DNA of 64,000 bases from an uncultured Acidimicrobiia bacterium (GTDB lineage: Bacteria > Actinomycetota > Acidimicrobiia > Acidimicrobiales > JACDCH01), in the NCBI GenBank assembly GCA_963840695.1, contig CAWIZW010000012.1:154424-218423 (forward strand). Reading direction: 5' to 3'. The position numbers were made by a program, and so were the translations under genes. Each line of letters starts with the position of its first letter. Position 1 is the first letter of the stretch. Positions 12,096-56,730 of this stretch are shown piece after piece. The notes beneath the pieces were generated by a model that saw nothing but the letters and a program-made list of their open reading frames with translations, had not been told where the DNA came from and searched no databases.

Positions 12096-12133
12096 CCGGA
12101 CGACGGGCACGGCCTCGCCCCCCGCTATCGTTC

Positions 12134-12149
12134 CTGACATCGATGTCAG
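12134..12149. promoter_or_regulatory. Palindromic operator-like site 5 (CTGACAtcgaTGTCAG)
   Basis: It is followed by TAGGGG (12151-12156), then 8 nt, then GTG 12165 of the hydantoinase B gene. Confidence 0.65.
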
Positions 12150-12164
12150 GTAGGGGGTGAGGCC

Positions 12165-30575: not shown

Positions 30576-31743
30576 GTCGGGTTGGCTTCGGTCCAGCGCT
30601 TGAGCAGGCCGCGGGCGATCACGATGCGCTGGATCTCGTTGGTGCCCTCGCCGATGATCATCAGCGGCGCGTCGCGGAAGTAGCGCTCGACCGGGAACTC
30701 CTTCGTGTAGCCGTAGCCGCCGTGGATCCGCATGGCCTCGGTGGCGAGCTCGAACGCCGTCTCCGAGCAGAACAGCTTCGCCATGCCGGCCTCGACGTCG
30801 GCCCGCTCGCCCGCCTCGAACTTCTCCGCCGCCGAGCGCACGAGCAGCCTGGAGGCCTCGAGCTTCGTGGCCATGTCGGCCAGCTTGAACTGGATCGCCT
30901 GGTGGTGGTGGATCGGGACGCCGAAGGTCTCGCGCTGGTGCACGTACCTCATGGACGCGTCGAACGCGGCACGGCGCGACGCCGACGGCACGGGCGGCGA
31001 TGTTGATGCGGCCCAGCTCGAGCGAGCCGAGGACGTAGTGGAGGCCCGTGGCCGAGACCGTCGTCGCCGCCGAGGACGTTGGCCGCCGGGACCTTGTGGT
31101 CGACGTAGGTCATCTCGACGGTCTCGAGGCCCTTGTAGCCGAGCTTGTCGATCGCGGCGGCTCGTGGCGATGCCCTCGAAGGCGGGGCCGGGCTCCTTCT
31201 CGACGATGAAGCAGGTGATGCCCTCTGGGGTCCTGGCGGCGAGCGCGACGATGGCGGCGCGCTCGCCGTTGGTGACCCACATCTTCGTGCCGTTGAGGCG
31301 GTACTCGTCGCCGTCGCGCTCGGCCTTGCACCGGATGGCCTGGGTGTCGCTGCCGGCGTCGGGCTCGGACAGCGAGAACGCGCCGCGGCGCTCGCCCGTG
31401 GCGAGGTCGGGGAGCCAGCGGGCCCGCTGGTCGTCGGTCCCGAAGCGCGTGATGAGGGTGGCGGCGATGGTGTGGGTGTTGAGCACGCCGGCGAGCGACA
31501 TCCAGCCGTACGACAGCTCCTCCATCAGCCGGGCGTAGGTGATGGTGTCGAGCCCCAGTCCGCCGTAGTCGCGGGATCGATGCGAGCGCCGAACAGCCCG
31601 AACGCCTTCATCTGCTCGACCCACGGCTCCGGGTACTCGTCGGCGTGCTCGTACTCCGACGCCTTGGGGATCACCTCCTTGGCGACCCAGTCGCGGATCG
31701 TCGCGACGAGCTCGTCGGCGAGCTCGGGATCGGTGGCGGCCAT
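30572..31743 (-). pseudogene. Acyl-CoA dehydrogenase, frameshifted
   Basis: Fragments are MAATDPELADELVATIRDWV, FSLSEPDAGSDTQAIRCKAERDGDEYRLNGTKMWVTNG and IHGGYGYTKEFPVERYFRDAPLMIIGEGTNEIQR. The stop overlaps the PhoD GTG as GTGA. Confidence 0.8.
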
Positions 31744-31759
31744 GACTCGACCGTACTTG

Positions 31760-33124
31760 TCAGTAGCGCTGCAGCTCGGGCCAGAGGTCGTCCCAGTCGA
31801 GGCGCTGGTCCCGGGCGACGAAGACGCCCCACCCGTCGTCGATCATCGGGAACGGCCCGAGCGTGGCCACGTGCTCGACGTCGGCCCAGAAGCGGTCGAC
31901 GTAGGCGCGGTCGGGCGCGACGACGATCGTGGTGTCGCTCCGGCCCGGCGGCAGCTCGGCCCAGTACCAGTACGTGAGGTGGGCGCTGATCGGCCGCAGG
32001 GCGGGCGACCACAGCTCGAGGGCGCCGGCCTCGCTGTAGGTCATGGTCAGGACGGTCGCGCCCGGGTGGGCGGCGGCGACGCGCTCGATCTCGGCGACGA
32101 CCTCGGGCCAGCCGAGCATCTCGCCCAGCTCGGGGTTCAGGCGGGCCAGGAACCCGGCGGTCGACCTCGGCGTCAGCGGCATCGAGAACGGTGCCATGAG
32201 GACGGCGAGGATGCCGATCGCGGCGAAGGTCGGTCCGGGCCGCCACGCCTCGGCGACGACGGCCCCGGCGCCGATGAGAGCCGGCAGCAGGACGCCGGCG
32301 TAGTACGGCTTGCCGCCGGTCGCCATCACCACGACCACGACGACGGCGAAGGCGACGACGAGCCACCGCTCGGGCGTGCGCACGAGACCGACGACTGCCA
32401 GCACCGCGGCGGGACCGGCGAACAGGAACTGGTACGGGAGCGTGAGCATCGCCTCGCCGTAGTCACGGATTCGAGCGGCGAAGGCGAACGCGGGCCAGTC
32501 ATGGCTCGCCTGCCACGCCAGGTTCGGGCTCCAGAGCAGGAGCGCGACGGCGGCGCCGGCGAGGACCCACGGGGTGAACAGGACGTCGCGCGAAGGGCTG
32601 AGGAGCAGGCCGGCCACGACGGCGAGCACGAGGTAGGTGACCGTCCACTTGTTGAGCAGCGCGACGCCGACGGCGGCGCCCACCGCGAGCCACAGCCACG
32701 GGTCGGCGCCGTGGACGAGCTTCACGACGAGGAGGGTGATCACCGCGCTAGGCGAGCACCTCGAACGTGACGGTGCCGAGGAAGTGACCGGTCGTCAGGA
32801 ACATCGGGCACACGGCGGCGGCGAGCGCGGCCAGCAGCTGGCCCCGCGAGCCGGCGCCGAGCTCCTTGGCGAGAAGCGCGGTGACGACGACGGTCGCGCC
32901 GTGGATCAGCGCCGGCGCCACCCGCAGGCCGACCTGGCTGGCGCCGAAGAGCAGCTCCTGGACACGGAACAGCGCAGGGGTGATCGGCGGGTGGTCGACG
33001 AACCCCCACGCCAGCCGGCGGCCGCAGGCGAGGTAGTAGAACTCGTCGCGGTGGAACCCCCACACGCCGGCGGTGGCGAGGTGGAAGGCCGCGGTGAGGC
33101 GCCGACGACGACCGCCGGCGTCAC
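31760..33124 (-). pseudogene. Glycosyltransferase family 39 / ArnT-like membrane glycosyltransferase, frameshifted
   Basis: WGFHRDEFYYLACGRRLAWGFVDHPPITPAL, followed by about 10 TM segments. There is a frame break with a stop at about 32745 and a probable one near 33095. The N-terminal assignment is uncertain. Confidence 0.55.
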
Positions 33125-33816
33125 CCCTCGACCACCAACGCCGAGGCGATCATGTGCAGCACGGTGTTCCGAGCGACGTCGTCGTCGATGCGGGCGCCGT
33201 CGTGGTCGCCGAAGCGGTGCATGGCGAACCAGGCGATGGTCTCCAGGACGAAGCGGGCGGCGACGGCGGCGTCGGGCACGGGACGGAAGTGGCCGCTCTT
33301 GACCCGCCGGCTGATGTAGCGCGCCAGGTCGTCGATGAACGGTGCCCGACCCTTCTCGTAGAAGAGCTCGGCGATGGCCGGCCGGTCGAGCGCCGACCGC
33401 TCGACGATGCGGATCAGGCGGCGGTACCGGAACAGCCAGTCGTAGTGCTCGCCGACGATCGCATCGAGCTCCGCCCGCACATCACGCGGCGAGCGCCGAC
33501 CGGCGAGCGCCGCCGCCAGCGCCGGCCGGCCTGACGTGCTCGCCAGGGCGGTCTGCAGCTCCGTCTCGACCGTGGCGCTCGGCGATGCCTTCGCCGGGAG
33601 GTCGCTCTCGTCGACCGGCGTTCCCACCTCGCGCAGGAGGACGAGGTGGAAGAGGGCCTCCTTGCTCTCGGCGTACTGGTAGAGGAGACCGGGCGAGATC
33701 CCGGCGACCGTCGCGATGTCGGCCATCCGGGCCCGCTGGAAGCCCACCTGCTGGAAGATCTCGACCGCGGCGTCGAGGATCTCGCCGACCCGTCCGGGCG
33801 GTCGCGTGCGAACCAT
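33121..33816 (-). CDS. TetR/AcrR family transcriptional regulator (TetR-3)
   Basis: The ORF is an intact 231 aa. The HTH is ARMADIATVAGISPGLLYQYAESKEALF. Confidence 0.85.
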   Translation of the reverse strand: MVRTRPPGRVGEILDAAVEIFQQVGFQRARMADIATVAGISPGLLYQYAESKEALFHLVLLREVGTPVDESDLPAKASPSATVETELQTALASTSGRPALAAALAGRRSPRDVRAELDAIVGEHYDWLFRYRRLIRIVERSALDRPAIAELFYEKGRAPFIDDLARYISRRVKSGHFRPVPDAAVAARFVLETIAWFAMHRFGDHDGARIDDDVARNTVLHMIASALVVEG

Positions 33817-33850
33817 GAGCGCATCATAAATGAATGACTCATTCAGTCAA
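33817..33850 (-). promoter_or_regulatory. Near-consensus promoter with an embedded palindromic operator for TetR-3
   Basis: On the minus strand the sequence reads TTGACT, 16 nt, TATGAT, 6 nt, ATG 33816. The spacer is occupied by the perfect palindrome TGAATGAgTCATTCA (plus-strand 33831-33845). This is the most AT-rich spot in the window. Confidence 0.6.
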
Positions 33851-34301
33851 GGTGAGATGGCGGAGATGCCCGGCCGGCCGGAACCCGTGTCGTTCGTAGA
33901 ACCTGACCGAGCGCTCGGTCGGGTTCAGGACGAGCTGGGTGAGGCCGCCAGCGCGCCTCGCGGATCAGAGCAGCCATGAGGGCGCCGCCCACGCCGGTAC
34001 CGCGGCGCTCGGACACGACGAAGAACTGGTGCACGTAGCCCCACTCGCTCGGCGGCCGCCGGGCCTCGGCATGCGGCGCATCACGACGAGGCTCACCATG
34101 CCGACGGCCGATCCGGCGTCCTCGGCGACGTACGAGCGCCGGTGACCCACCTCGGCGGCGAGCCAGTCGTCGAACCGCGCCTCGAGGTCGGGTCGTCGAT
34201 CGCCTGACCAGCGTCCTCCTCGGTCCACGTGCGGCGCAGCGCCCGGAGGACGGCGACGTCGCCGGGGTCGTCAGATCAGCGGCACGGACCGAGACCGGCA
34301 T
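33839..34301 (-). pseudogene. GNAT family N-acetyltransferase, multiply frameshifted
   Basis: Fragments are MPVSVRAADLT, PDLEARFDDWLAAEVGHRRSYVAEDAGSAVGMVSLVVM, EWGYVHQFFVVSERRGTGVGGALMAALIREA and LVLNPTERSVRFYERHGFRPAG, in alternating frames. Confidence 0.6.
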
Positions 34302-35790
34302 CGGTGCACGGTACCGGTGGGGGTCAGGCGGGCGAGGTTCACGCCGTTGCCGCCGTCGACGAGCTCGACCCGGCGGCCGACCCACTCCTCGGCCTCCAGG
34401 GCCGCCAGCAGATCGGGGTCGCGCACCTTGGCGTAGCAGCGCGGGCCGGCCGGGCCGTCGATGTCGCACACGAGCAGGCCGTCGGTGACGGCGCCGTCGC
34501 GACCGTGGTGCACCGTGTAGGTGGCGACCGTGGCCGGGCCGTGGTGCGCGTCGACGATCGGCCGGAGCACCGCGGGGCCGGGATCGGGCGGCGGCGGCCG
34601 TAGCTCGCCCGCGCCGGGATCGGTCGACCACACCGTCGAGCTGTGCTTGGTGAGGTGCATCCCGACGCCGGTCACCATCCCGAGGGCGCCCGGGTCGCCG
34701 ACCAGCCGGTCGGCCATCGCCGCCGTCGCCATCACGCAGGTAGCACGAGCCGGCGCCGCCGTAGTACGGCAGCCCGCCGGTGACGGTGAACGGCGCCCGC
34801 TCGTCGCCGGGCGCCAGCCCGAGGGCGTCGAGGGCGAGGTGCACCGACGACGGGAAGCACGAGTACAGGTCGACCACGGCGACGTCGTCGACGCCGGCGC
34901 CGGCCGCCGCCAGCGCCGTCGCGTGCACCCAGGCCATCGCCGGCGACCGCCACGGCTCGTCGTGCTCGGCGACGTACACGGGGTCGGTGGCGTAGGCCCA
35001 ACCGCGCAGGTGCACCCGCCGGTCGTCCGGCACGCCCAGGGCGTCGGCGGCCGCCGCCGACGCCAGCACGAGCGCCCCGGCGATGTCGACGTCCATCACC
35101 GACATGAGCCGCTTCGTGTACGGGTAGGCGACCATCCGGTTCTCGGGCGTCGGCGTCGGCGAGCTCCTGCGGCGTGCGCTCGATCGCGGAACCAGGCGTG
35201 CGGGTTCGCCGCCGCCACCTCGGTCATCGGCGCGAACAGGTCGCCGAGCCCGCGCCGGTACGCCTCGACGCCGACGCCGACGGTGCGCCCGCCGGGCGAC
35301 GTCCCAGAGGGCGAAGGTCGTGTAGGCCTGGAACACCTCGTGGGCGATCTCGGCAGGGTGGAACGGCGCCTCGAACGGGAACGGCTTGCGCTCGGGGTCC
35401 CGGTGCGACCACGCCGGCCGCTCCCCCGCCTTCTTCAGCCGCCGCACGGTGTCGAGGGCCTCGCCCCCGGCGACGACGCACACGTCGGCGTCGCCGGCGG
35501 CGATGCGGCTCGGCGGCCTCGCCGAGCAGGAGCTGCGGCGTCGTGCCGCCGATGCCCGAGTAGGCGAGCGCGCCGCGGCGAAGCGCCGACGGCCGCCCGC
35601 CAGCCGCCCGGCGGGGTCGTCGTAGGGCCAGCTCTGGCAGTAGACGACGTCGAGGGAGTCGACCCGTTCGGGCGGGACCTTCGCCGAGCGCCTCCCGGAC
35701 GGCGTCGGCCCACGCCTCGAGCGGCTCGCCCGGGTGCCGGCTGACCTGCGACCACCCGATCAGGCACGGCGGCCGGTCGCCGGGCCTCAC
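34271..35790 (-). pseudogene. Thiolase-like acetyl-CoA acetyltransferase family protein, multiply frameshifted
   Basis: Fragments are PCLIGWSQVSRHPGEPLEAWADAVREAL, VCVVAGGEALDTVRRLKKAGERPAWSH, VDLYSCFPSSVHLALDALGL, FTVTGGLPYYGGAGSCY and VTGVGMHLTKHSSTVWS. Confidence 0.65.
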
Positions 35791-35797
35791 CGGCTCC

Positions 35798-36610
35798 TCA
35801 CCGGTTCTTCCACTCCGGCGGTCGCTTCTCGGCGAAGGCCTTCGGGCCCTCCTTGGCGTCCTCGGAGGCGAACACGACCTGGGACAGCTCCTGCTCGATC
35901 GTGTACGCCTCCCGCAGCGTGACCGACAGGCCGCGGATCACGGACTCCTTCGTGGCCCGCACGGCGAGCGGGCCCGTTGGCGAGGATGCGCCCGGCCCAC
36001 TCGAAGGCCCGGTCCATGAGCTCGCTCGGGCTCGACGATCTCGTTGAGCAGCCCGAGCGCCAGGGCCCGCTCGGCCGGGAACGGCCTCGGCGGTGAGCAG
36101 GAACTCCATGGCCGCCGGGAACGGGATCTGGCGGGGCAGCCGCGCCGTCGTGCCGCCGCCGGCGAACAGCCCCCGCTTGGGCTCCATCACGCCGAACGTC
36201 GCGCGCGGCGTCGCCAGGCGGATGTCGATGCCGCCGAGCATCTCCATGCCGCCGGCGACGCAGGGGCCGTCGATGGCGGCGATGATCGGCTTGTACAGCT
36301 TCGACGTTGCGCAGCACCGCTTCGGTGCCGTCGCTGAGGCGGCAGCCGTCGATCTCCTCGACCTCGCCGCTGCCGATCTCGGCGGCCAGCTTCGTGATCT
36401 GCGGGATGTAGTCCTTCAGGTCGGCGCCCGACATGAAGCAGCCGTCGACGCCGGTGACGATCGCGACCCAGAGGTCGTCGTCGTCACGGAAGTCGCGCCA
36501 CGCCTTGGCCAGGTCGCGGAAGTCGTGGAGGTCGAGGGAGTTCTTGCGCTCCGGTCGGTCGATGGTGACGACCACCACGTGGTCGTGACGGGCGTCGTAG
36601 TGGATCGGCA
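35798..36610 (-). pseudogene. Enoyl-CoA hydratase/isomerase (crotonase) family protein, frameshifted
   Basis: Fragments are VVVVTIDRPERKNSL, VAIVTGVDGCFMSGADL, CVAGGMEMLGGIDIRLA and the tail EDAKEGPKAFAEKRPPEWKNR. Confidence 0.75.
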
Positions 36611-36699
36611 TCAGCGGTGCTCCATCGACAACTTTGGCGGTCGGACCCGGACTCGCCGCGCCCACCCCGGGCCCGACCGCCGCGGAACGCGCCGGCGGG

Positions 36700-37131
36700 T
36701 CAGCCCCGACTGGGCAGCGCGGCGCTGGCAGAACCCGCCACCTTGACCTCACCGTCGGCGTTGGCCAGGGCGATGTCGAGGTCGACGAGGTTCTCGCCCT
36801 CCTCCTTGCGCTTGCCGGTGACGGTGATCGAGGAGACCAGGGTCTCGCCCGGCCACGTCTGCTTCGTGAACCGGACCTTGAACGTCTTGAGGTTGCCGAT
36901 GCCGACCCAGTCGGTGACGGACCGGCCGAGCAGGCCCATCGAGAACATGCCGTGGCCGAACACCGAGGGCAGGCCGGCCGCCCTGGCCTTCTCGTCGTCG
37001 TGGTGCATGGGGTTGAAGTCCCCCGAGGCCCCCGCGTACTTCACGAGGTCGGTGCGCGACAGCACATGGCGCACCTCGGGGGCGGTGTCGCCCTCGCTCA
37101 CATCCTCGAAGAACAGCTTCTCCTCGGCCAC
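36700..37131 (-). CDS. MaoC-like (R-specific enoyl-CoA) hydratase, hotdog fold
   Basis: The gene is intact from GTG 37131, which is preceded by GGGGGAG. The key segment is YAGASGDFNPMHHDDEKARAAGLPSVFGHGM. Confidence 0.8.
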   Translation of the reverse strand: MAEEKLFFEDVSEGDTAPEVRHVLSRTDLVKYAGASGDFNPMHHDDEKARAAGLPSVFGHGMFSMGLLGRSVTDWVGIGNLKTFKVRFTKQTWPGETLVSSITVTGKRKEEGENLVDLDIALANADGEVKVAGSASAALPSRG

Positions 37132-37973: not shown

Positions 37974-39013
37974 GCGCGGCCCGACGCCGCCCCTTCTCGT
38001 TCGCGGTGGCCATGGCCCGGCCGGCTGCTGCGGGAGTCGCCCTGCTGTTCGCGGCGGTCGGCAGTGCCGCCGCCGGATCCGGCGGCGCGCTGCTCCCGTT
38101 GTTCACGACGGTGCTCGTGATCGTCGGCTCCTGGTTCGCCGCCCTGGTCTGCGTGAACGACCTCGGCGACGAAGCCATCGACCGGGTCAACCTGCCCGGC
38201 GACGCCAACCGACCCCTCGTCACCGGCGCGGCATCCCGGCGGCAGGTGACGGCCATCGGTGCCGGTGCCGCCGCCCTCGCGCTCGGTGTCGCGTGGATCG
38301 AGGGCCCGATCGTCGCCGCCGTCGTCGCCGCCGGGCTCGCGCTCGGCGCCGCCTACTCACTGCCGCCGTTCCGGCTGTGCGGGCGAGGCCTCGTCGCCGC
38401 CGCCGTGCTGCCGGCCGGCTACGTCGCGGTCCCCTTCCTCGTCGGCGCCCTGAGCACCGACGCCACACCCCGCGGGACGGCGTTCGCCGTCCTGCCCGGG
38501 CTCTACCTCGTGTTCATGGGCCGCATCCTGTTGAAGGACTTCCGCGACGTCGAGGGCGACGCCCTCTTCGGCAAGCGGACCTTCCTCGTCCGCTACGGCC
38601 GGCGCGCCACCTGCTGGTTCAGCGCCGGGTGCTGGTGCGTGGGCGCCGTCGCCGTCGCGGCTGCCGTCCCGCAGCGCGCCGTCCTCGTCGTGCCGATCGC
38701 GGCGCTGCTGGCGTCGGTGCTCCACGGGCTGTCGGCGCTCGCCGCGGACGCAGGCCGCACCGAGGACGACGCCGCCATCGCCGCCATCGCCCAGACCGGG
38801 CGGGGGCTCGGTGTCCTGCTGCTCGCCCACCTCACGATGCTCGAGCAGGGCTGGGGCGCTGGTGGCCGGATCGGCGTGACCGTCGCGCTGACCTTGGTGT
38901 TCGTCGCTGGCTACGCCGACGTCGCCATCGCCAGGTCGGCGAGCCGGTCATGGTGGTGGTCGGCCGTGCCGAGCAGGTGCTCCGCGGCGAGCGCCCGCCT
39001 CAGCCACAGGTGA
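37955..39013 (+). CDS. UbiA-family prenyltransferase
   Basis: The frame is intact with about 8 TM segments. The Asp-rich motifs are NDLGDEAID and KDFRDVEGD. The start is GTG 37955 or GTG 37970. The 3' end overlaps the convergent ACAD-like gene by about 100 bp. Confidence 0.7.
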
Positions 39014-39916
39014 AGGTCGTGCTCCCACGTGTAGCCGATGCCGCCGTGCACCTGGATCGACGTCCGCACCGCGTGCGCGGCGGCTTCGGAGGCGGCGGCC
39101 TTGGCGACATGCGGCGCCCGCGTCGCGTCCCGAACCGGCAGCGTCGGGATCGTCGAGGCACATGGCCGCCCACTGCACCCCGGCCCACGCCCGTTCGACG
39201 TCGAGGGCGAGGTCGGCGAGCAGGTGCTGCACCGCCTGGAAGGAGCCGATGGGCTTGTCGAACTGGATGCGCTCGCCGGCGTAGGCGACCGCCATGTCGA
39301 GCATGGCCCGGGCCGTGCCGCACAGCTCGGCGGCGAGCACGACCGTGCCCCGCTGCAGGATCGACGCCAGCGTCGCGGCGGGCACGGCCGCAACGGGTCC
39401 GTCGCCACCGGTCAGCTCCCATGCCGTGCGGCTGAGGTCGAGCCACGTGGTGCGCCGCCCGGCCCCGGCGGCGACGACGGCGATGCCCTCGGGGAGCGCG
39501 ACGACGACGTCGTCGGCCAGGTCGAGCTCGAGCACGAACGTGCGCTCCGGCTCCGAGCTCGGCGGCACCGCCCAGTCCCCCTGGGCGCCGGCCCAGGCGA
39601 CCGTCGCCGCCCGCTCCCCCGCGGCGACGGCGTCGGCCAGCTCGTGCCCGGCGGCCCGCAGCAGCGGTAGCGCCAGCGCCGAGGCGACGAACCACGTCCC
39701 GGGCGCGCAGCTCCGCCCGACCCGCTCGGCGACGAGCACGTGGTCGGTGACCGGGCCGTCGCCCACCGCGACGAAGTCGGCCAGTGGGGCCAGACGGGCG
39801 GCGTCGCGATCGCCCTCGGCGACGGCCCGGACGAGAGCAGGGGGGCAGGCGCCGTCGAGCAACGCCGACACCGAGTCGACGAGGAACCGTTGATCGTCGG
39901 TGAGGGTGAAGTCCAT
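38911..39916 (-). pseudogene. Acyl-CoA dehydrogenase-like protein (short, partner-subunit type), one frameshift near 39130
   Basis: [20 protein letters not shown] and [22 protein letters not shown] are in one frame. The tail [28 protein letters not shown] is in another. Confidence 0.7.
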
Positions 39917-39919
39917 CGC

Positions 39920-41096
39920 CTACGACCGCGGCAGACCGAGGATGCGGGTGGCGATGATGTTGCGCTGGATCTGGCTGGTGCCGCCGGCGATGGTCGAGGC
40001 GAAGCTGACGAAGTAGCTGTGGGCCCAGCGCCCGCCCTCCTCGCCCCGCTCGGGATCGACGACCGCGCCCCACGGACCCTGCAGCTGCATGCCGAGCTCG
40101 AACAGCTCCTTGCCCAGCTCCGACGACGCCAGCTTCAGGTAGCTGTGCTGCGGCGCCGAGCCGCCCTGGGCGAAACCGGCGAAGCCCTGGTAGCCGAGGG
40201 CCCGCAGCGAGGCGACGCGCTGCGTGGCGCGGGCGAGGGTCCGTCGCACGCCGGCGTCGTCGAGCAGGCCGCGACGTCGGGCCAGCGCCCACAGGTCGTC
40301 GACCGCGACCTGGGCCCGGGCCACGCCCTCGAGCCAGAGCCCGCCCCGCTCGTGGGCCAGCGAGCCGGTCGTGATCCGCCAGCCGTCGTTCTCGGCGCCG
40401 ACGCGGTTGGCCACCGGGACCTCGACGTCGGTGAGGAACACCTCGGCGAAGTCGGCGCCGCCGGTGATGTGGCGCAGCGGCCGCACCTCGATGCCCGGGC
40501 GTGTCCATGTCGACCATGAGCGCCGAGATCCCCTTGTGCTTCGGCACGGTCGGGTCGGTGCGGACGTACAGGAAGCAGCGATCGGCGAACGACGCGTACG
40601 ACGTCCACACCTTCTGGCCGTTCACGACGTACACGTCGCCGTGGCGCTCGGCGCGGGTCGAGAGCGCGGCGAGGTCGGAGCCGGCGCCCGGGCTCGCTCA
40701 TCCCGACGCACCAGACGGTGTCGCCGCGGATGGCGTCGGCGGCGAGGGCCTTCTGGGCCTCGTCGCCGTACTCGAGGAGCGACGGTCCGACGATGGCGTA
40801 GCCGCCGAAGTGGAGGCTCCGCGGCACCCCTCGGCGCGCAGAGCTCCTCGAGGTAGACCATCGTCTGGGTCGGCGTGGCGTCGCGGCCGCCGAGCTCGGG
40901 TGGGTAGCCGGGCACCATCCAGCCGCTGTCGAAGAGCTTCGCCTGCCACCGGCGGGCCCACTCGGGCACGCCGTCGGTCACCTGGCCCTCGCTGAAGTCG
41001 CGCCGGACCTTCGCCTCGGGCGGGCGTGTGCTCGTCGAGGAAGGCGACGAGCTCGTCGCGGAAGGCCTCGTCGGCCGCCGACCAACCCAGCTTCAT
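39920..41096 (-). pseudogene. Acyl-CoA dehydrogenase, multiply frameshifted
   Basis: Fragments are [87 protein letters not shown] and [23 protein letters not shown]. Confidence 0.75.
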
Positions 41097-41141
41097 GAGG
41101 ACTCGGGCTTCATGAGGACTTGGGGTTCATGCCGGACTGGG
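41091..41141 (-). repeat. Three tandem copies of a 17-bp stop/start junction (minus strand: CCCAGTCCGGCATGAAC / CCCAAGTCCTCATGAAG / CCCGAGTCCTCATGAAG)
   Basis: Each copy carries an ATGA. Together they chain the SDR-relic stop (41129-41127) to mini-ORFs MNPKSS (41130-41110) and MKPESS (41113-41093), and then to the ACAD ATG 41096. Confidence 0.7.
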
Positions 41142-41318
41142 GAAGAAGAACGGAGGGATGGCGCCGTCGGACCGGGCGAGCAGCTGGGCCCTGACCGCGT
41201 CGACGGAGTCGATCGTCCACGGCTTGTCGGAGGTCGACGCGAGCAGGAGCGCCTCGGCCCGGCCGATGCCCCGGCCGGCGCCGGTCACGATGGCGACCTT
41301 CCCGTCGAACCGCCCCAT
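41127..41318 (-). pseudogene. SDR relic: a 63-codon in-frame fusion of an SDR N-terminus and C-terminal tail
   Basis: MGRFDGKVAIVTGAGRGIGRAEALLLA is joined directly to TSDKPWTIDSVDAVRAQLLARSDGAIPP. The tail parallels that of the full-length paralog at 56731-57615 (EQGERWTVDAVAARADELFGERRRGTPP). About 230 codons of the core are missing. Confidence 0.55.
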
Positions 41319-41353
41319 GCACTCCCCCGTTTCGATGACCCTCGCCGACAAAC

Positions 41354-41369
41354 CTGACACGAGCGTCAG
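41354..41369. promoter_or_regulatory. Palindromic operator-like site 10 (CTGACAcgagCGTCAG)
   Basis: The flanks are AAAC and GT. It lies in a divergent gap and is followed by TAAGGT (41375-41380), then 8 nt, then ATG 41389. Over AACCTGACACGAGCGTCAGG it is identical to site 12. Confidence 0.65.
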
Positions 41370-41388
41370 GTGCGTAAGGTAGCCCGAC

Positions 41389-42279
41389 ATGCCCGACGAC
41401 GCGACGTCTTCGGCGGGGGCCCCACCCCTGCGCCCAAGCCTTCGGCGGGGGCCCCCACCCCTGCGCCGATCCGCACCGAGGTCGACGACCGCGGCGTCGC
41501 CACGATCACCATCGACCGGCCCGACGCCGGCAACTCCCTCACCGCCGAGATGCGCGACTCGCTGGCCGACACCTTCGACGAGCTGTCGGCGACGCTCGGG
41601 GTGCGGGCGGTCGTGCTCACCGGCGCCGGCGACCGGCACTTCTGCACCGGCGCCGGGCTCGGCGGCAGCGCAGCCGGCCGCAGCCGGCCCGGCCCGACGG
41701 CGCCCCCGACCGCGCCCTCGGCGACGTCGCCCGCATGATCCGGCGCGGCTGGCAGCGGCTGATCGCGCTCGATCCTCGACTGCGAGAAGCCGGTGATCGC
41801 CGCGGTCAACGGCACCGCGGCCGGCGGCGGCGCCAACCTCGTGCTCGCCTGCGACCTCGTCGTGATGGCCGACACCGCCCGGCTCATCGAGGTCTTCGTG
41901 CGGCGCGGCATCATCCCCGACGCCGGCGGCTGCTACCTCCTGCCCCGCATCGTCGGCCTGCCGCGGGCCAAGGAGCTGATGTTCCTCGGCGACGACGTCT
42001 CGGCGCGCCGACTGCGAGCGCTTCGGCATCGCCAACCGCGTCGTGCCGGCGGCGGACCTGCGGCCGACGGTCGACGAGCTGGCCGGCCGGCTGGCCGGCG
42101 GCCCGTCGAAGGCGGTGGCCATGACGAAGTGGCTCGTGAACCGGAGCTTCGAGTCGGGCCGCCACACCGCCTTCGAGGAGGAGGCCTACGCCCAGGAGCT
42201 GGTCGCCGCGACGGCCGACATGGCCGAGGGCATGGCCGCCTTCGCCGAGCGCCGGGACCCGTCCTTCCGCGGTTGGTGA
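41389..42279 (+). pseudogene. Enoyl-CoA hydratase/isomerase (crotonase) family protein, frameshifted
   Basis: Fragments are VATITIDRPDAGNSL, VVLTGAGDRHFCTGAGL, KPVIAAVNGTAAGGGANLVLACDLVVM and DMAEGMAAFAERRDPSFRGW. ATG 41389 comes into frame once the C-run indel in the 33-bp repeat is corrected. Confidence 0.75.
41408..41467 (+). repeat. Tandem 32/33-bp duplication inside the crotonase N-terminus
   Basis: The unit is CTTCGGCGGGGGCCCC(C)ACCCCTGCGCC, present twice at 41408-41434 and 41440-41467. Copy 1 has C4 (41420-41423) and copy 2 has C5 (41452-41456). With C5 in both copies, the repeat encodes SAGAPTPAP twice in frame. Confidence 0.75.
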
Positions 42280-44726: not shown

Positions 44727-45344
44727 TTGGCAAGACCCCGGAGCAAACGAGGTTCGGGCCAGCAGCTGCGGTCCGACCTGATCGACGCGGCCAACGCCAT
44801 CCTCGACCGGACCGCCGACCCGGCCGACGTGACGGTGCGCGGCGTGGCGGCGGCGGTCGGGGTGGCGCCGAACGCGGTGTACCTGCACTTCGCCGACCGC
44901 GACACCCTCCTGACCGAGGTCGTCGTCGACCGCTTCGGCGCCTTCAAGGCCGCCCTCGCCGACGCCGTCGAGGGCGTGGACGACCCCCTCGAGCGCCTCA
45001 AGCGAGGGCACGCCGCCTACTGCGCCTTCGCCATCGAGCACCCCGGCCACTACCGGATGCTGTTCGGCAACACGGGTGTCGACCCCGCTCGCCGGGACCT
45101 GTGGAACCGCCGCCTCGAGGTCGCGTTCCCGGCGTTCGAGATCCTCGTGGAGTGCTGCCGTCGATGCATCGACGGCGGCGTGTTCGGCCCGGTCGATCCC
45201 TACGAGCTCGCCGGTGCGCTCTGGGCCTTCGAGCACGGATGGGTCGTCCTCAAGTCGGGCGGACGCGAAGGCGACGTCGTGCCGGCCGCCGGCGCCGCCC
45301 TCGACGTCCTCCTCGCCGCGCTGGGCGCGACGCGAGCGGGCTAG
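44727..45344 (+). CDS. TetR/AcrR family transcriptional regulator (TetR-4)
   Basis: The frame is intact. With the TTG start it reads (M)ARPRSKRGSGQQLRSDLIDAANAIL. The HTH is VTVRGVAAAVGVAPNAVYLHFADRDTL. Confidence 0.8.
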   Translation: MARPRSKRGSGQQLRSDLIDAANAILDRTADPADVTVRGVAAAVGVAPNAVYLHFADRDTLLTEVVVDRFGAFKAALADAVEGVDDPLERLKRGHAAYCAFAIEHPGHYRMLFGNTGVDPARRDLWNRRLEVAFPAFEILVECCRRCIDGGVFGPVDPYELAGALWAFEHGWVVLKSGGREGDVVPAAGAALDVLLAALGATRAG

Positions 45345-46572
45345 CGGGTCAGCAGGAGGCAGCCGGCGAGGGGGCCGCCGCCGGCGCCCACCACGGCGAC
45401 CTCGGGCTCGCGGCCGCCGGGCCGCACGACCTGGCGGTCGCCGCCGGCGCCCCGCAGCTGCACGACGGCCTCGTGCAGGAAGCCGTAGCCGTGCAGGCGC
45501 CCGGCCGACAGCTGGCCGCCGTGGGTGTTCAGCGGCAGCTCGCCGTCGAGGGCGATGCGCGTGCCGCCCTCGACGAACGGGCCGCCCTCGCCCTTGCCGC
45601 AGAAGCCGAGCGCCTCGAGCCAGCAGAGCGTGATGAAGCAGAACCCGTCGTAGAGCTCGGCGACGTCGACGTCGGCCGGCGTGAGGTCGGTGGCCGCGAA
45701 CAGCTGGGCCGATGCGTCGCGCAGCGCCATCGTCGTGAGGTCGTCCCACTGGTCCCACGACGGGCGCCCGTGGATGGCGGTGCCGACGGCGTCGATCCGC
45801 ACCGGCGGGTGCGGCGAGGTCCGCCACCGTGTCGGCCGCCGAGACGATGACCGCGGTCGACCCGTCGCACGGCGCGTCGCAGTCGAAGAGGCAGAGCGGC
45901 TCGGAGACCATCCGGGCGGCGAGGTAGTCGTCGAGGGTCATCGGGTCGCGGTAGACGCCCTTCGGGTTGCGGGCGGCGTTGCGCCCTGCCGTTGAGGGCG
46001 ATGCCGGCCAGCTGCTCGCGCGTCGTGCCGAACTCGTGGAAGTGGCGCATCGCCATCATGGCGATCCAGTTCGCCGCCGACGGCGCGCCGTAGGGCAGCA
46101 CCCACTGCATGAACCCGCCCATGCGGACGCCGCGGCCGCCGCCTCCGCCACCGCCGCTCGAGGACGACCCCGGCATCACCGCGGAACGCCCGCTGTCGCC
46201 CTGGGCCGAGGCCTCGGTCACGGTGCGGAAGCACAGGACGTGCCGGGCCAGGCCGGCGGAGACGGCGAGCACGGCGTTGACGACCGAGCCGAGCTGGCCC
46301 GGCGACTCGATGCCGCCCGTGTACCAGTTGAGGTCCAGGCGCAGGGCGTCGTGGATCTCGGTCACGCCGACGCCGCCGCTGAAGCCGGGCGGCGTGTCCA
46401 TGGCGCCCGGGTAGGTGGCGACGCCGTCGATGTCGCCCGGCGTCAGACCGGCATCGGCGATGGCCTCGAGGCAGGCGTCGAGCGTGAGGTCGAGGCCGGG
46501 CCGGTACAGCCGGCGGCCGACGTCGGACTGGCCGACGCCGGAGATGACGGCGGCGAGCCGCTGGCTACCCAT
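45341..46572 (-). pseudogene. Ltp-type (non-specific lipid-transfer-protein-like) thiolase, frameshifted
   Basis: Fragments are AAVISGVGQSDVGRRL, YGAPSAANWIAMMAMRHFHEFGTTREQLAGIAL, EPLCLFDCDAPCDGSTAVIV and LNTHGGQLSAGRLHGYGFLHEAV. It contains an unusual SSSSGGGGGGG insert (about 46130-46165). Confidence 0.75.
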
Positions 46573-47069
46573 CGGCGCCGTCGCCGTCGGGTGCGAAGAA
46601 CGGGAGCCACACGTCGTCGTACTGCTCGAAGGTCACCCGCACCGGCATGCCGATGCTGACCGACGTCCGGCTCGATCGCCGACGATGCCGGCGGTGACGC
46701 GCAGGCCGGCCTGCTCGGGCAGCTCGACGATGCCGACGACGTAGGGCGGCTCGAGGCCGGGGTACCAGGGCTGGTGGTTCACCGTGTAGGTGTGCAGCGT
46801 GCCCCGGCCCGGACGTGGCCGACGGCGTCGAGGGCGCGGCCGCGGCACGACGGGCAGATCGGAGCAGGCGGGTGGACCCAGGTGCCGCAGGCGTCGCAGC
46901 GCAGGATGCGGAGCTCGCCGTGCTCGCCGCCGGTCCAGTAGTGGCGGTTGGCGTCGTCGAGCCGGGGCAGCACCCGGAACGGCTGGGCCGGCTGAGGCGG
47001 CACGGGCGGCGCCGCAGGAGTCGCCGCAGGATGCGGCTCCGCCGCCCCGGGCTCAGGTGCCTCCGTCAC
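46565..47069 (-). pseudogene. DUF35 OB-fold / zinc-ribbon protein (thiolase partner type), frameshifted
   Basis: The zinc ribbon is CDACGTWVHPPAPICPSC, followed by TLHTYTVNHQPWYPGLEPPYVVGIVEL and MPVRVTFEQ. The stop lies 4 nt after the thiolase ATG. Confidence 0.65.
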
Positions 47070-47394
47070 GAGGGGCCGCCTCGAACCCGGCTCGGGCGGC
47101 CGCCAGCGCCTGGGCGGCGGGCAGGACGCCGAAGGCCGGCGTCGTCAGCATGATCGAACCGAGGACGTCCTCCCACGTCACGCCGAGCTCGGCGGCGAGC
47201 ATGGCGTGGCGCTCGATGCCCGGCGGGTTGCGGGCGATCACCTGGCACACGAGCCGGATGAGCTCGTGGGTCCGGCGGTCGGGCGCCGCGAGCGAGTCGA
47301 TCGCCGACAGCCAGGCGCTCTGGGCGTCGTGCAGCGCCGGGAACACCTCGTGCACCGGCGCTTCCCAGGCGAAGGTCCACTCGTGCTCGTTCAC
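47053..47394 (-). CDS. Carboxymuconolactone decarboxylase (AhpD-like) family protein
   Basis: The ORF is an intact 113 aa and is helical. Its segments are PDRRTHELIRLVCQVIARNPPGIERHAMLAAELGVTWEDVLGSI. Confidence 0.55.
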   Translation of the reverse strand: MNEHEWTFAWEAPVHEVFPALHDAQSAWLSAIDSLAAPDRRTHELIRLVCQVIARNPPGIERHAMLAAELGVTWEDVLGSIMLTTPAFGVLPAAQALAAARAGFEAAPRDGGT

Positions 47395-47403
47395 CGCACC
47401 GTG

Positions 47404-47800
47404 CTAGCACGGCCGGAAGACGGGCAGCGCGAAGTCGCCGTCGTCGCGGAAGGTCACCTCGAGCGCCATCCCGATGGCGACCGCCTCGGGCTCGCAGTCG
47501 ACGACGTTCGTCAGCATCCGCGGTCCCTCGCCAGGTCGACGACGGCGGCGACGTACGGCACCCGCTCGTTGAACGGCGGCAGGTCGTTCCGGCGGACGAT
47601 CGAGTACGTGTAGAGCGTCGCCGCGCCGGAGGCCTCCTCCCACTCGACGTCCTCGCTCCAGCAGTGCGGGCAGAACGGCCGGGGGTAGCATGGGGCCGCC
47701 CGCAGGCGCGACAGCGCTTGATCAGCAGCTTGCCCTCCTTCGCCGCATCCCAGTAGGGCTGGGTCTCGGCGTCGGGCGTCGGCAGGTGGGCCGAGCTCAT
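47404..47800 (-). pseudogene. DUF35 OB-fold / zinc-ribbon protein (second copy), frameshifted
   Basis: Fragments are PYWDAAKEGKLLIKRCRACG, then CYPRPFCPHCWSEDVEWEEASGAATLYTYSIV, then VAIGMALEVTFRDDGDFALPVFRPC. Confidence 0.65.
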
Positions 47801-48935
47801 CGGGGCCCTGCTCGTCGAGGTCGCTGGGCAGGCCGAGCAGCCGCTCGGCGATGACGTTGCGCTGGATCTCGCTCGTGCCGCCGGCGATCGAGAGGCAGCG
47901 GTTGGCGAGGAAGCCGTAGAGCCAGCCGGCGGCGTCGCCGTCGTCGGCGACTGCGGCCCGGCCGAGCGAAGCCGAGGCCGACCTCCTGCGTGCGCTGGTC
48001 GTGCTCGACGCCGAGGAGCTTGCGCACGCTCGCCTCCGGGCCCGGGCCGGCAGCGGCGGCTCGGCGAGGGAGCGCAGCGTCATGCGGAGCGCCGAGGACG
48101 GCGAGGGCCTGGGCCGTCGGCGAGCAGCCCGCCGACGTGGTCGACGTCGACCGGATCGGCGGCGCCGAGGTCGGCCCAGGAGCGCCGAGGACGAGCTCGA
48201 CGCCGAGGCCGAACGACGAGCCGCGAGCCCATCGACACCCGCTCGTTGGCGAGCGTCGTGCGCGCGGCCGCCCACCCGCCGCCGACGGCGCCGACGACGG
48301 CGTCGTCGGGCACGAACACGTCGGTGAGGAACACCTCGTTGAACATCGCCTGCCCGGTGAGCTCGCGCAGCGGCCGGATGCTCGATGCCGTCGGCCGCCA
48401 TGTCGACGACGAAGGCGGTGATGCCGTCGTGTCGGGGCACGTCGGGTCGGTGCGGGCGAGGCAGAGGCCGCAGGTCGGCGTCGGCGGCCATCGACGTCCA
48501 CACCTTCTGGCCGGTGAGGAGCCAGCCGCCGTCGACCTTCGACCGCCTTGGTCGCCAGCGACGCCAGGTCGCTGCCGGCGCCGGGCTCGCTGAACAGCTG
48601 GCACCACGACAGCTCGCCCCGCAGCGTCGGGCCGACTACCGGTCCTGCTGCTCGGCGCGTGCCGTGGGCGATGAGCGTCGGGCAGCACCCACGCGCCCGA
48701 CCTGCGAGGTGGGGACGGCGGACGTGACGCGGCCGCCAGCTCCTCGTCGATCACGAGCTGCTCGAGCGGCGACGGCGTCGCGGCCCCACGGCGCGGGCCA
48801 GTGCGGGGCGATCCAGCCGCCGTCGGCGAGCAGCGCGCCGCCACTCGGACTTCGTCGTGCGCGGCGAGCTCGTCGACGCACGGCGCGGATCGGCCGCGCG
48901 GCCGGCGTCGGCCTCCGGCGGGCAGCTCGACGGTC
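47797..48935 (-). pseudogene. Acyl-CoA dehydrogenase, heavily frameshifted (boundaries approximate)
   Basis: Fragments are LLADGGWIAPHWPAPWGRDA, PLEQLVIDEEL, GQKVWTSMAADADL, HDGITAFVVDMAADGIE, IRPLRELTGQAMFNEVFLTDVFVPDDAVVG and SIAGGTSEIQRNVIAERLLGLP. No clean start codon is visible. Confidence 0.6.
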
Positions 48936-49945
48936 GATGGGCCGGCGCGCGCCGGCCGCGGCCAGCTCGGCGACGCGCCGCTCGCCAGCGGTGCGGCAGG
49001 GCCGACGAGGGCGCGCGGTCGCGAGCGCCCGCTTCAGGTACAGGTGGACGTCGTGCTCCCAGGTGAACCCGATGCCGCCGAGCACCTGCACGCAGTCCTT
49101 CGCCGCCGGCGAGGAAGGCCTCGGGCGCGAGGGCGGCGGCGACGGCGGTGGCGAGGCCGCCCTCGTCGCCGTCGACGTCGGCGCGCGCAGCGCGTCCCAG
49201 GTCGCGGCCCGGGCCAGCTCGAGCGGTGCAGAGCATGTCGGCGCACCGGTGCTTGACCGCCTGGAACTGCCCGATCGGCTGGCCGAACTGCTCGCGCACG
49301 CGCGGCGTACGCGGCCGCCGTCTCGACGCACCACGCCGCGCCGCCGATGGCCTCGGCGCACCACAGCCGCACGGCGATCGACGTCGACCAGATCGTCGGG
49401 GTCGTCGAGGAGCGCAACGGCGGGAACGTGGTCGACGACGACGTCGGCGACCGGGCGGGTCTCGTCGGTCGACGGGCGGTCGCGTGCGCCTCGAACGCCA
49501 TCGACGACCGCCCACCGAGCGGCGCTGACGGGCAGGAGCAGCCAGTCGGCGCCGACGGCGCCCGGGACGGCTTCGATGCGGCCGGACACGGTGCCGCCGG
49601 CGTCGGCATCGAGCGGCGCGACGTCCCACGCCAGCGCCGCCCGCCCTTCGGGGACCTCGCCACCGAGGCGTTGCACCGCGGTGACGGCCGCGGCCGTTGG
49701 CAGGAACGACCCCGGCGCGCAGGCCGCGACCGAGCTCCTCGAGCACGACGCCGAGCTCGGGGAGCCCGAAGTCGGTGCCGAGCGTGGGCCAGTCGGCGGG
49801 CACGGCCGGCTCACGGGCCCGGACGCCGCCGTCGAGCCAGGCGCGCGGCACCTCGCGCGGCACGTTGCTCTCGACCCAGCGCCGCGCCGAGTCGTGCAGC
49901 GCGGCGTGCTCGTCGCTGATCCCGAGGCGTCCGACCTTCACCAGC
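48936..49945 (-). pseudogene. Acyl-CoA dehydrogenase-like partner protein, heavily frameshifted (3' boundary approximate)
   Basis: Fragments are VKVGRLGISDEHAALHDSARRWVES, SGRIEAVPGAVGADWLLLPV, REQFGQPIGQFQAVKHRCADM and VLGGIGFTWEHDVHLYLKRALA. Confidence 0.6.
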
Positions 49946-49960
49946 CGCCTCGCCGGCGGG

Positions 49961-50081
49961 GCGGGTCGAGGACGACCGTGCCGCGACCCTCGGAAACCGG
50001 CGGTCGATGCACACTCGTCGGCGCGGTCGAAGACGACCGTGCCGCGACCTTCGGAAACCGGCGGTCGATGCACAGTCGTCG
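49961..50081. repeat. Tandem 60/61-bp duplication between the ferredoxin and the ACAD-like gene
   Basis: Copy 1 is 49961-50020 and copy 2 is 50021-50081. They are near-identical, with core GACGACCGTGCCGCGACC(C/T)TCGGAAACCGGCGGTCGATGCACA. Confidence 0.75.
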
Positions 50082-50093
50082 CCGCTGACGGGC

Positions 50094-50295
50094 TCATGCG
50101 TCGTCGCGGTGGAGCGTGATCGACTTCGTGGGGCAGCCGTCGGCGGCGAGCTCGATCTGCTCGGGCGGGTCGCCGGCCGGGTCGACGACGATGGCGATCA
50201 GGTCGTCGTCGAGATCGAACGTGGCCGGCGCGCAGGTGGGCGCAGTTGCCCGATCCGATGCAGGTGTCCCGGTCGATCTCGATGCGCAGCCCCAC
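50094..50295 (-). pseudogene. Small single-cluster ferredoxin (3Fe-4S/4Fe-4S type), one frameshift
   Basis: GLRIEIDRDTCIGSGNCAHL, then (shifted) PATFDLDDDLIAIVVDPAGDPPEQIELAADGCPTKSITL. GTG 50295 lies 8 nt after a TACTGT hexamer on the minus strand. Confidence 0.65.
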
Positions 50296-50311
50296 GGGGC
50301 CCAACAGTAAC

Positions 50312-50327
50312 CTGACACGGGTGTCAG
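50312..50327. promoter_or_regulatory. Palindromic operator-like site 11 (CTGACAcgggTGTCAG)
   Basis: It lies in a divergent gap. On the plus strand, TAACCT (50308-13) is fused to the left arm and followed by 7 nt and GTG 50321. On the minus strand, TACTGT (50309-50304) is followed by 8 nt and GTG 50295. Confidence 0.65.
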
Positions 50328-51402: not shown

Positions 51403-51422
51403 GCGACCGTAGCAAACGCCGC

Positions 51423-51456
51423 GAACACCGTCGAACACCGTCGGGAGTGAACCGTC
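51423..51456 (+). promoter_or_regulatory. Direct repeats GAACACCGTC x2 plus a degenerate third copy (GAACCGTC) upstream of the GGDEF-EAL gene
   Basis: The copies are at 51423-51432, 51433-51442 and 51449-51456. They are followed by a comparatively AT-rich stretch (TATCGTTCACTCTACGTAGTTGGATGGCTACATAGC) ending 5 nt before ATG 51526. Confidence 0.3.
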
Positions 51457-51525
51457 GGACCCATGCGGACGGCCGAGGGGCGTCGGTATCGTTCACTCTA
51501 CGTAGTTGGATGGCTACATAGCGGG

Positions 51526-53898: not shown

Positions 53899-53999
53899 CG
53901 GCAGGGACGGCCAGGCTCGTCCACCGGCGACGATCATCGACCTCGCAGGGCGGCGGCTACGGCTCCTGGGCTGATCGCCGGTCGCGGTGGCGCGCGACC

Positions 54000-55369: not shown

Positions 55370-55377
55370 CCCCGAAC

Positions 55378-55393
55378 CTGACACGAGCGTCAG
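55378..55393. promoter_or_regulatory. Palindromic operator-like site 12 (CTGACAcgagCGTCAG)
   Basis: It lies in a divergent gap. On the plus strand, TACTGT (55396-55401) is followed by 7 nt and ATG 55409. On the minus strand, the TACCCT hexamer (55398-55393) overlaps it, and GTG 55369 lies 8 nt beyond the site. Confidence 0.65.
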
Positions 55394-55408
55394 GGTACTG
55401 TCGCCGCC

Positions 55409-56721: not shown

Positions 56722-56730
56722 ACGGCCGCC

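Follow-up and report, generated by a model that had tools for sequence, protein, structure and literature searches.

A strain-variable 17-nt array of serial stop/start junctions between an SDR gene and an acyl-CoA dehydrogenase gene in an uncultured Acidimicrobiia species

Organization of the SDR–ACAD1 junction

The intercistronic junction studied here lies on the minus strand of a 64-kb stretch of DNA from an uncultured Acidimicrobiia species (contig CAWIZW010000012.1; the whole stretch is hereafter called the window), between a short-chain dehydrogenase/reductase (SDR) gene, represented in the window by a relic, and the acyl-CoA dehydrogenase gene ACAD1, all on the same strand. The junction is occupied by an array of 17-nt units, the repeated unit being composed of 13 spacer bases and an ATGA. 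Unit 1 (CCCAGTCCGGCATGAAC, 41141–41125) represents the native 3' terminus of the SDR gene (P S P A stop), and within it lies the first ATGA, in which ATG 41130 overlaps TGA 41129–41127. Unit 2 (CCCAAGTCCTCATGAAG, 41124–41108) holds the second ATGA (ATG 41113) and Unit 3 (CCCGAGTCCTCATGAAG, 41107–41091) the third, the ATG of which, at 41096, is the start codon of ACAD1. On the minus strand the region reads ...ttcttc, CCCAGTCCGGCATGAAC, CCCAAGTCCTCATGAAG, CCCGAGTCCTCATGAAG, then CTGGGTTGG. The position of the ACAD1 start codon is orthologous across all relatives.

Three co-directional stop/start overlaps of 4 nt are found in series. Mini-ORF 1 (MNPKSS-stop, 41130–41110, minus strand) starts within the stop of the SDR relic, and its TGA (41112–41110) overlaps ATG 41113 of mini-ORF 2 (MKPESS-stop, 41113–41093, minus strand), the TGA of which (41095–41093) in turn overlaps ATG 41096 of ACAD1 (MKLGWS...). 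The preliminary description of this locus, made from the window alone, had reported three ATGA-carrying 17-bp units on the minus strand (41141–41091) and a chain leading from the SDR-relic stop through the two mini-ORFs to ACAD1; all coordinates, open reading frames (ORFs) and overlaps proved exact. It had further taken it as striking that the chain is preserved despite a unit length that is not a multiple of three, and this view has to be abandoned, as the property is pure arithmetic of the 17-nt period. Since 17 equals 2 mod 3, ATG(n)+18 is the TGA of ATGA(n+1), in frame, so that each unit forms a 6-codon ORF overlapping the previous stop and the next ATG. The chain is therefore automatic and involves no extra coincidence.

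No canonical Shine-Dalgarno (SD) sequence was seen in the window ahead of ACAD1 ATG 41096. The minimum free energy of the region 41160–41070 was no better than that of shuffled sequences (z = +0.85), an Rfam scan of the whole window matched no family, and neither a sigma-70-like promoter nor an intrinsic terminator was found between 41800 and 40800.

Tandem Repeats Finder assigned the array a period of 17 with 2.5–3 copies (score 70/61). Units 2 and 3 match at 16 of 17 positions, and just two adjacent 17-mer pairs window-wide score as high; the likeness of Unit 1 to Unit 2 was equalled by 22 of 200,000 random window 17-mers. With up to three mismatches allowed, the unit pattern has three matches in the window (0.16 expected), and ATGA-N13-ATGA occurs four times (0.17 expected). 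The 17-nt repeat exceeds chance. Outside the array the unit was found neither in the rest of the 64-kb window nor in the first 160 related loci searched, and the idea of a dispersed element was dropped on these grounds. Tandem repeats spanning the ACAD start codon were found in none of 152 homologous ACAD loci.

Variation of the array among strains

Four conspecific loci, each on a contig from a separate metagenome sample, were available for comparison: L161 (JGI sample 3300060897), L167 (3300038383), L170 (3300086401) and P0121 (3300041967). Their ACAD1 genes share 96.7–97.9% nucleotide identity with that of the window. These contigs were found solely by protein search; when the stitched ACAD1 sequence was used to scan collections of genomes and metagenomes, the best identity was 73% among the matches listed, in which a common ACAD motif dominates. 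The P0121 contig and the contig P0007, considered below, were compared at the level of gene layout and spacing only.

The L161 locus (ACAD1 97.9% identical) contains three ATGA, in the form GGCATGAAG / CCCAGGTCCTCATGAAG / CCCATGTCCTCATGAAG, and in context reads gccggcATGAAG cccaggtcctcATGAAG cccatgtcctcATGAAG ctcagttgg. At the L167 junction, GGCATGAAG / CCCAAGTCG-----AAG / CCCAAGTCGTCATGAAG, one unit is 5 nt short, and a single 10-codon ORF (MKPKSKPKSS-stop) bridges the two remaining ATGA, spanning 29 nt (equal to 2 mod 3). The L170 contig opens inside the array, aagtcctcATGAAC cccaagtcctcATGAAC cccaagtcctcATGAAG, and contains at least three spacer-type (GTCCTC-type) units. The P0121 contig has the gene order of the window, with an intact 329-aa SDR followed by a 30-nt gap to ACAD1, which is the window spacing. 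Copy number differs between strains: the window and L161 have two spacer units each, L167 has a full and a shortened one, and L170 has at least three.

The stop/start chain was checked in four strains and is intact in every variant found. Expressed in codons, it runs 63, 6, 6 and ACAD1 in the window, 10, 6, 6 and ACAD1 in L161, a 10-codon bridge and ACAD1 in L167, and 6, 6 and ACAD1 in L170. The sequence of the encoded peptides is not conserved (MNPKSS, MKPESS, MKPRSS, MKPMSS and MKPKSKPKSS), and no substitution between units falls in an ATGA. Between them, the window and L161 have four copies of Units 2 and 3, which all agree at 15 of 17 positions. The differences among these four copies are confined to unit positions 4–5 (41121–41120 and 41104–41103 in the window, 165–166 and 182–183 in L161), which read AA, GA, AG or AT and correspond to codon 4 of the mini-ORF; the same two positions fall at -8/-7 from the next ATG, the usual SD site.

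The preliminary description had proposed comparing unit copy number in related strains and had named an assembly artefact, with one true unit, as what would overturn it. Variable arrays are present in independent assemblies, L161, L167 and L170 each carrying one, and an artefact of this kind is excluded. Taken together, the contigs indicate that the array is real, specific to one species, variable among its strains and older than the loss of the SDR gene discussed below.

Related loci and the origin of the array

More distant relatives possess a single junction at the corresponding position. In L171 (ACAD1 86% identical at the amino acid level) it is a single overlap, ccATGAgg, and in L166 (82% nucleotide identity) it is gctTGATGaag. 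L168 and L169 (87% nucleotide identity) have acGTGA-13 nt-GTGAgac, that is, one 6-codon bridge with the same 17-nt geometry. Overlaps of -4 and -1 nt to the upstream ORF are common in this ACAD family. One-mini-ORF bridges were seen at four of the 32 loci with a spacer of 1–40 nt, where approximately two were expected; the difference is not significant, and a proposed enrichment of such bridges among short-spacer loci was dropped.

Unit 1 coincides with the end of the SDR gene, PSPA-stop, and the related genes end in ESPA-stop, PSPT-stop or PSP-stop (orthologous ends in L166, L167, L168 and L171). Outside CATGAA, Units 1 and 2 of L167 show weak likeness (5 of 10 positions). Unit 1 is thus a native gene end, which in L167 bears only weak likeness to Unit 2, and the 'triplication' of the preliminary description may instead be a duplication of [13-nt spacer + ATGA] beside a pre-existing SDR/ACAD overlap; that three ATGA units are present stands. 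The proposed origin, by slippage at a coupling junction, is consistent with the comparisons, in which relatives at 82–87% identity have one junction, and derivation of the array by slippage from a single coupling junction fits these data. The ancestral form may have been either a single overlap that was triplicated or an NTGA-13-NTGA arrangement that was duplicated; L171 and L168 point in opposite directions.

The SDR gene, leader ORFs and the control region

The SDR relic of the window is an ORF of 63 codons (41127–41318, minus strand), in which 27 N-terminal residues containing the Rossmann motif GAGRGIG are fused in frame to 36 C-terminal residues (TSDKPWTIDS...FFFPSPA-stop). Relative to full-length orthologues ∼720 bp (∼240 codons) are deleted, the breakpoints being set against L167. 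The N-terminal 27 residues are 92.6% identical to the N-terminus of the SDR of L003, and the relic matches the adh_short profile at positions 1–35 only. An SD-like GGGGGAG (41322–41328, minus strand) is located 3 nt ahead of the relic's ATG. In L161 the remnant is reduced to 10 codons (GTG GGG CGG TCG ACA GAA GGG TCG CCG GCA TGA) ending at the first ATGA, and ∼25 nt including the GGGGGAG of the window are missing. L167 has a full-length SDR gene with one frameshift, which ends in PSPA-stop. Damage to the SDR gene takes three conspecific forms, namely the frameshift in L167 (∼640–700), the in-frame deletion of ∼720 bp in the window (41236–41229) and a near-total deletion in L161 (127–159); the gene is intact on the P0121 contig, and a paralogous SDR gene lies at 56720–57587 of the window.

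Both relics, of 63 codons in the window and 10 codons in L161, are in frame with the first ATGA. As judged from these contigs, the SDR gene is repeatedly lost in the species, yet a translatable ORF ending at the first ATGA stays. The array predates this loss, because L167 has a full-length SDR gene and P0121 an intact one with an equal 30-nt gap. The preliminary description had a defunct SDR relic feeding the ACAD pair; relic and downstream pair are indeed there, and what has to be revised is the age of the array, which is older than the relic.

Leader ORFs are also found in lineages without the SDR gene. In L162 (1062–1106; likewise in L163 and L164) the SD sequence GGAGGG precedes a 14-codon leader, MGTEVVDVVRGGRR followed by a stop, the TGA of which overlaps the ACAD GTG by 4 nt. 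On the SDR-less P0007 contig a leader ORF of 29 codons has a 4-nt overlap with the ACAD start.

Between the SDR relic and the divergent enoyl-CoA hydratase (ECH) gene lies a palindromic operator-like site, CCTGACGCTCGTGTCAGG (41353–41370), which probably indicates where the operon's regulated promoter region lies. Its pattern, CCTGAC-N6-GTCAGG, occurs five times in the window (41353–41370, 55377–55394, 12133–12150, 11086–11103 and 3476–3493) and also upstream of an ACAD or SDR gene in L002, L003, L005, L086, L087, L161–L163, L165 and L168. It is probably an operator for a regulator, possibly of the TetR type, of a lipid/steroid-like catabolic regulon. The 5' end of the ECH gene carries a 32-bp tandem duplication (CTTCGGCGGGGGCCCCACCCC..., 41408–41460, plus strand), which is also present in L161 (1–62); as it is shared with this conspecific contig, it represents a second real rearrangement of the same control region.

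The ACAD genes and the reliability of the assembly

ACAD1 (39920–41096, minus strand) encodes an acyl-CoA dehydrogenase with N-terminal, middle and C-terminal domains, the stitched sequence matching PF02771, PF02770 and PF00441, respectively. Its partner ACAD2 (38911–39916, minus strand), for which only the C-terminal domain was recognized, starts 3 nt past the ACAD1 stop. The preliminary description overlooked that both genes are broken in the window by 1-nt insertions, four in ACAD1 (41024/5, 40839, 40686 and 40500) and one in ACAD2 (near 39131), which are absent from conspecific contigs. As assembled, ACAD1 and the divergent ECH gene are each spread across four frames and ACAD2 across two. 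Comparison with five orthologues attributes each break in ACAD1 to one inserted base. All five insertions are missing from L161 and L167, L170 lacks those in ACAD1, and the ACAD1 insertions are likewise absent from L168 and L169. In addition, an intact 390-aa ACAD with 98% identity (P0001) is one of six clustered sequences, each of which comes from a different sample.

A codon-phase hidden Markov model run across the whole window counted ∼135 same-strand frame switches (93 of the +1-nt and 42 of the -1-nt type), or approximately one per 450 bp, concentrated in the regions 1–4100, 6078–11055, 29000–37000 and 45300–57500. Between 44.7 and 57.6 kb many genes switch frame every 100–200 bp with no premature stop, so that ∼13 kb of frameshifted genes are free of premature stops; a GGDEF-EAL gene (52477–53868), stitched over ∼10 frameshifts, matches its two Pfam domains over their full length. 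Numerous indels, hardly any nonsense changes and a bias towards insertions point to an indel-rich assembly and not to gene decay, so that the sequence is unreliable at the level of single bases. The insertions in the ACAD genes are probably assembly errors, the genes almost certainly being intact in the organism. The practical lesson is that apparent pseudogenes in an indel-rich window should not be taken as biology.

Other repeats at gene junctions

An independent array was found in L007, an unrelated metagenome-assembled genome of Actinomycetes, between a thiolase-like and an aldehyde dehydrogenase (ALDH) gene (10326–10398, plus strand). It reads gagg ATGAcacggaggacgagg ATGAcacggaggacccg ATGAcacggaggacccg ATGAcacggaggacgcg ATGAcactgacg... 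and contains five ATGA with spacings of 18, 17, 17 and 17 nt, linked by MTRRTR-stop mini-ORFs into an unbroken chain; every unit includes GGAGGA together with the opening bases of the ALDH ORF. Altogether, four arrays of at least three [AG]TGA whose period is not divisible by three were present in 1.53 Mb, with periods of 8, 14, 17 and 17, all equal to 2 mod 3.

One of these four arrays lies at ∼5850–5908 of L004, upstream of an ACAD gene; it is a 14-bp repeat (TCCCTCATTTGCCT) in 4–5 copies, and its ATGA and chain of 5-codon ORFs occur only on the strand opposite to the flanking genes. This array is a useful negative control against reading function into such structures.

Three further features of the window may be recorded. 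The 6-codon ORF MTGSRR-stop (10221–10241, minus strand), with GAGGGG ahead of it, has a TGA that overlaps the ATG of the next gene (MNRGGDMRDERDE...) and represents a single unit of the 17-nt geometry. A 61-bp tandem duplication (49960–50085, minus strand; 2.1 copies, 92% matches) lies just after the ATGA overlap of a ferredoxin-like gene (stop ∼50094–50096) with the next ACAD gene, and, as assembled, the ORF from the overlap ATG is open across both copies into ACAD. Finally, a perfect 33-bp tandem repeat (61117–61191, plus strand; 2.3 copies), in frame and encoding EADVERESARV, is situated inside a coding region.

Interpretation

The interpretation that we favour, with somewhat better than even confidence, is that the array is a slippage-made variable-number tandem repeat (VNTR) of a translational-coupling junction, which would be tolerated since termination–reinitiation coupling survives it. 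The array would have been made by slipped-strand mispairing at a coupling junction, for which the CATGAA direct repeats 17 nt apart are the likely substrate. Overlaps of the ATGA and TGATG types couple translation by termination–reinitiation (Huber et al. 2019, PMC6728339; 2023, PMC10666635); the final 15 nt of the upstream ORF suffice for coupling, and a spacer of ∼20 nt nearly abolishes it (PMC6728339, PMC10666635). Ribosomes ending the upstream ORF, be it the SDR gene or its relic, would thus reinitiate at the overlapping ATG and pass the mini-ORFs by successive termination–reinitiation to the ACAD1 start, probably with some loss per step; such a relay is plausible. This reading draws on the polymorphism of the array among conspecific strains, the unbroken chain in all variants, the single junctions of the outgroups, the in-frame relics and leader ORFs, the lack of a canonical SD sequence and of significant RNA structure at the ACAD1 start, and the independent L007 array of like geometry. 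An untranslated gap of 30 nt would otherwise be expected to abolish the coupling of ACAD1. Where a 34-nt insertion would normally uncouple the gene, the array would instead re-create an overlapping start at each step, and may persist as one of the few duplications that keep the operon translatable. Copy number may lower ACAD output stepwise, as a side-effect. The in-frame relics, the L167 deletion that leaves a span of 2 mod 3, the spared ATGA and the confinement of variation to positions 4–5 weakly hint at constraint, post hoc.

A number of considerations weigh against this interpretation. Actinobacteria often initiate translation without an SD sequence, so ACAD1 could start alone, and 6-codon ORFs may shed ribosomes at each step through the peptidyl-tRNA drop-off seen at minigenes. 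A copy-number change of 17 nt keeps the chain automatically, and its preservation cannot be counted as evidence for selection. The two in-frame relics and the frame-keeping 5-nt deletion of L167 each had a one-in-three chance of occurring and were noticed afterwards. No SD sequence precedes the 10-codon relic of L161, from which ribosomes would have to enter the chain in that strain. Mini-ORF peptides that are not conserved fit a pure delivery role and, equally, no role, and the L004 array, with its ATGA only opposite to the strand of the flanking genes, indicates that such arrays can arise without a role in coupling. In a window with approximately one frame switch per 450 bp single bases of the array could also be wrong, although the relatives argue otherwise.

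The same observations lend themselves to other explanations. One that is possible, if rather doubtful, regards the array as a neutral slippage scar, an unstable repeat without a translational role, with ACAD1 initiating de novo at ATG 41096. The automatic continuity of the 17-nt chain, the number of bridged junctions (not clearly enriched at 4 of 32 short-spacer loci), the lack of an SD sequence feeding the chain in L161, the variable peptides and the ATGA repeats of L004, for which no coupling role is possible, all speak for it. It accounts less well for the lack of any SD-like sequence before ACAD1 in a family typically joined upstream by overlaps of -4 or -1 nt, for the frame kept by the L167 deletion, the two SDR relics and the leader ORFs found in lineages without the SDR gene, and for the ATGA being untouched by unit substitutions; that all four non-multiple-of-3 arrays in 1.53 Mb have a period of 2 mod 3 and none of 1 mod 3 is a weak point in the same direction (p ∼0.06). 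The junction could also be a 'frame-proof' repeat serving as a translational rheostat, in which slippage adds or removes reinitiation steps while the genes are never uncoupled, and this we consider unlikely. That selection acts on unit copy number to adjust ACAD output relative to upstream translation, as contingency-type tuning and not as an on/off switch, seems to us very unlikely. Copy number and form do differ among strains that are 97–98% identical, the variable dinucleotide at -8/-7 occupies the SD site, where GAG and AGG would be weak SD cores, and SD strength modulates reinitiation in published work; but just five strains were compared, the range of copy number is narrow (from two to at least three spacer units), and any unstable repeat would vary likewise.

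Decay of the whole cluster, with the SDR gene, both ACAD genes and ECH dead and the junction functionless, would fit the assembled sequence, in which ACAD1 has four frameshifts, ACAD2 one and ECH three and the SDR gene lacks ∼240 codons. It was rejected in view of the intact conspecific genes and appears extremely improbable: the five ACAD insertions are missing from all conspecific contigs covering each site, intact 390-aa proteins with 98% identity occur in six samples, ∼13 kb of frameshifted genes contain no premature stops, and the insertion bias is opposite to the natural deletion bias. Only the loss of the SDR gene is real, recurring in other forms in L161 and L167. We give next to no credence to the extra units being products of an error-rich contig and missing from the organism. 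With ∼135 frame switches biased towards +1 nt (93 against 42) and a GGDEF-EAL gene that matches both its domains across 10 frameshifts, the contig is rich in errors; these are single-base indels and not 17-nt duplications, and L161, L167 and L170 carry the array independently, each with its own point differences. Equally negligible, in our estimate, is the possibility that the 17-bp repeats are binding sites of a regulator (iteron-like, with a TCATGA core) or a regulatory RNA structure. The units are indeed direct repeats in tandem whose 6-bp core is palindromic, and SDR-deleted strains place them 50–230 nt from the operator; with an intact SDR gene, however, the array sits ∼900 nt into the operon, the operator that can be recognised has another motif, no further copy of the unit turned up in the window or among the first 160 loci searched, and the folding and Rfam analyses described above gave no RNA signal.

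If the relay through the coupling-junction VNTR is true, the species and its relatives would provide a natural allelic series, in which a single junction stands beside forms with one, two and at least three bridges and a form with one fused bridge of 10 codons. The series would allow three quantities, so far studied just in engineered constructs, to be measured: how efficient reinitiation is at each step, how short a bridging ORF can be and what SD-like bases contribute. If the rheostat were true, copy number and the dinucleotide at the SD position would determine how much ACAD each round of upstream translation yields, selection to keep the chain unbroken would account for the in-frame SDR relics and the leader ORFs that follow SDR loss, and arrays like that of L007 would form a class of repeats that recurs in translation-initiation regions of high-GC Actinobacteria.

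Comparison with known systems

Classical contingency loci toggle genes on and off through slipped-strand mispairing that shifts the frame of an ORF or alters promoter spacing. The array resembles such simple-sequence-repeat loci in that its copy number varies by slippage among close strains and that it is adjacent to a gene it can affect. It differs from them in that it is located outside the ACAD1 ORF, all forms observed preserve the chain and do not affect the ACAD1 frame, and the effect would at most be graded.

With gene pairs translated by termination–reinitiation (PMC6728339, PMC10666635) the locus shares the -4 nt overlaps between co-directional ORFs, downstream genes that encode subunits of a heteromeric enzyme (here the ACAD pair), and a strong distance dependence, which would make a 30-nt gap problematic unless bridged. 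In the known pairs a single overlap joins two full-length genes, whereas here at least two overlaps are chained through 6-codon ORFs, and the number of steps depends on the strain. Ribosome-delivering upstream ORFs (Shell et al. 2015, as discussed in PMC12548453), like those of the bicistronic design of biotechnology, are likewise short, unconserved ORFs with a stop overlapping the start of the real gene. Relics of the SDR gene in the window and L161, as well as the leaders of 14 and 29 codons in SDR-less relatives, would match this description; the upstream ORFs described there are single, and those of the array are serial copies made by tandem duplication.

The closest described system is that of the mycobacterial interspersed repetitive units (MIRU-VNTR). 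According to PMC12548453 and PMC3184786 (citing Supply et al. 1997), these have units of ∼40–100 bp at ∼40–50 loci, show signs of mobility and of having inserted at start codons, and contain small ORFs with -4 nt overlaps to the adjacent stop and start codons, so that downstream coupling is thought to be preserved. Both are intercistronic tandem repeats in actinobacterial operons with strain-variable copy number, and in both the small ORF of the unit is oriented with the flanking genes and has -4 nt overlaps at its ends. The present unit is much shorter (17 nt as compared with 40–100 bp) and derives from the local junction, its host is an Acidimicrobiia species and not Mycobacterium, and, where MIRU are dispersed, it was seen at one site only within the 64-kb window and the first 160 loci searched. 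By analogy, the array would work like a MIRU without being one, and would extend the idea that coupling-preserving repeats are tolerated in operons to a much smaller, locally made unit in another actinobacterial class.

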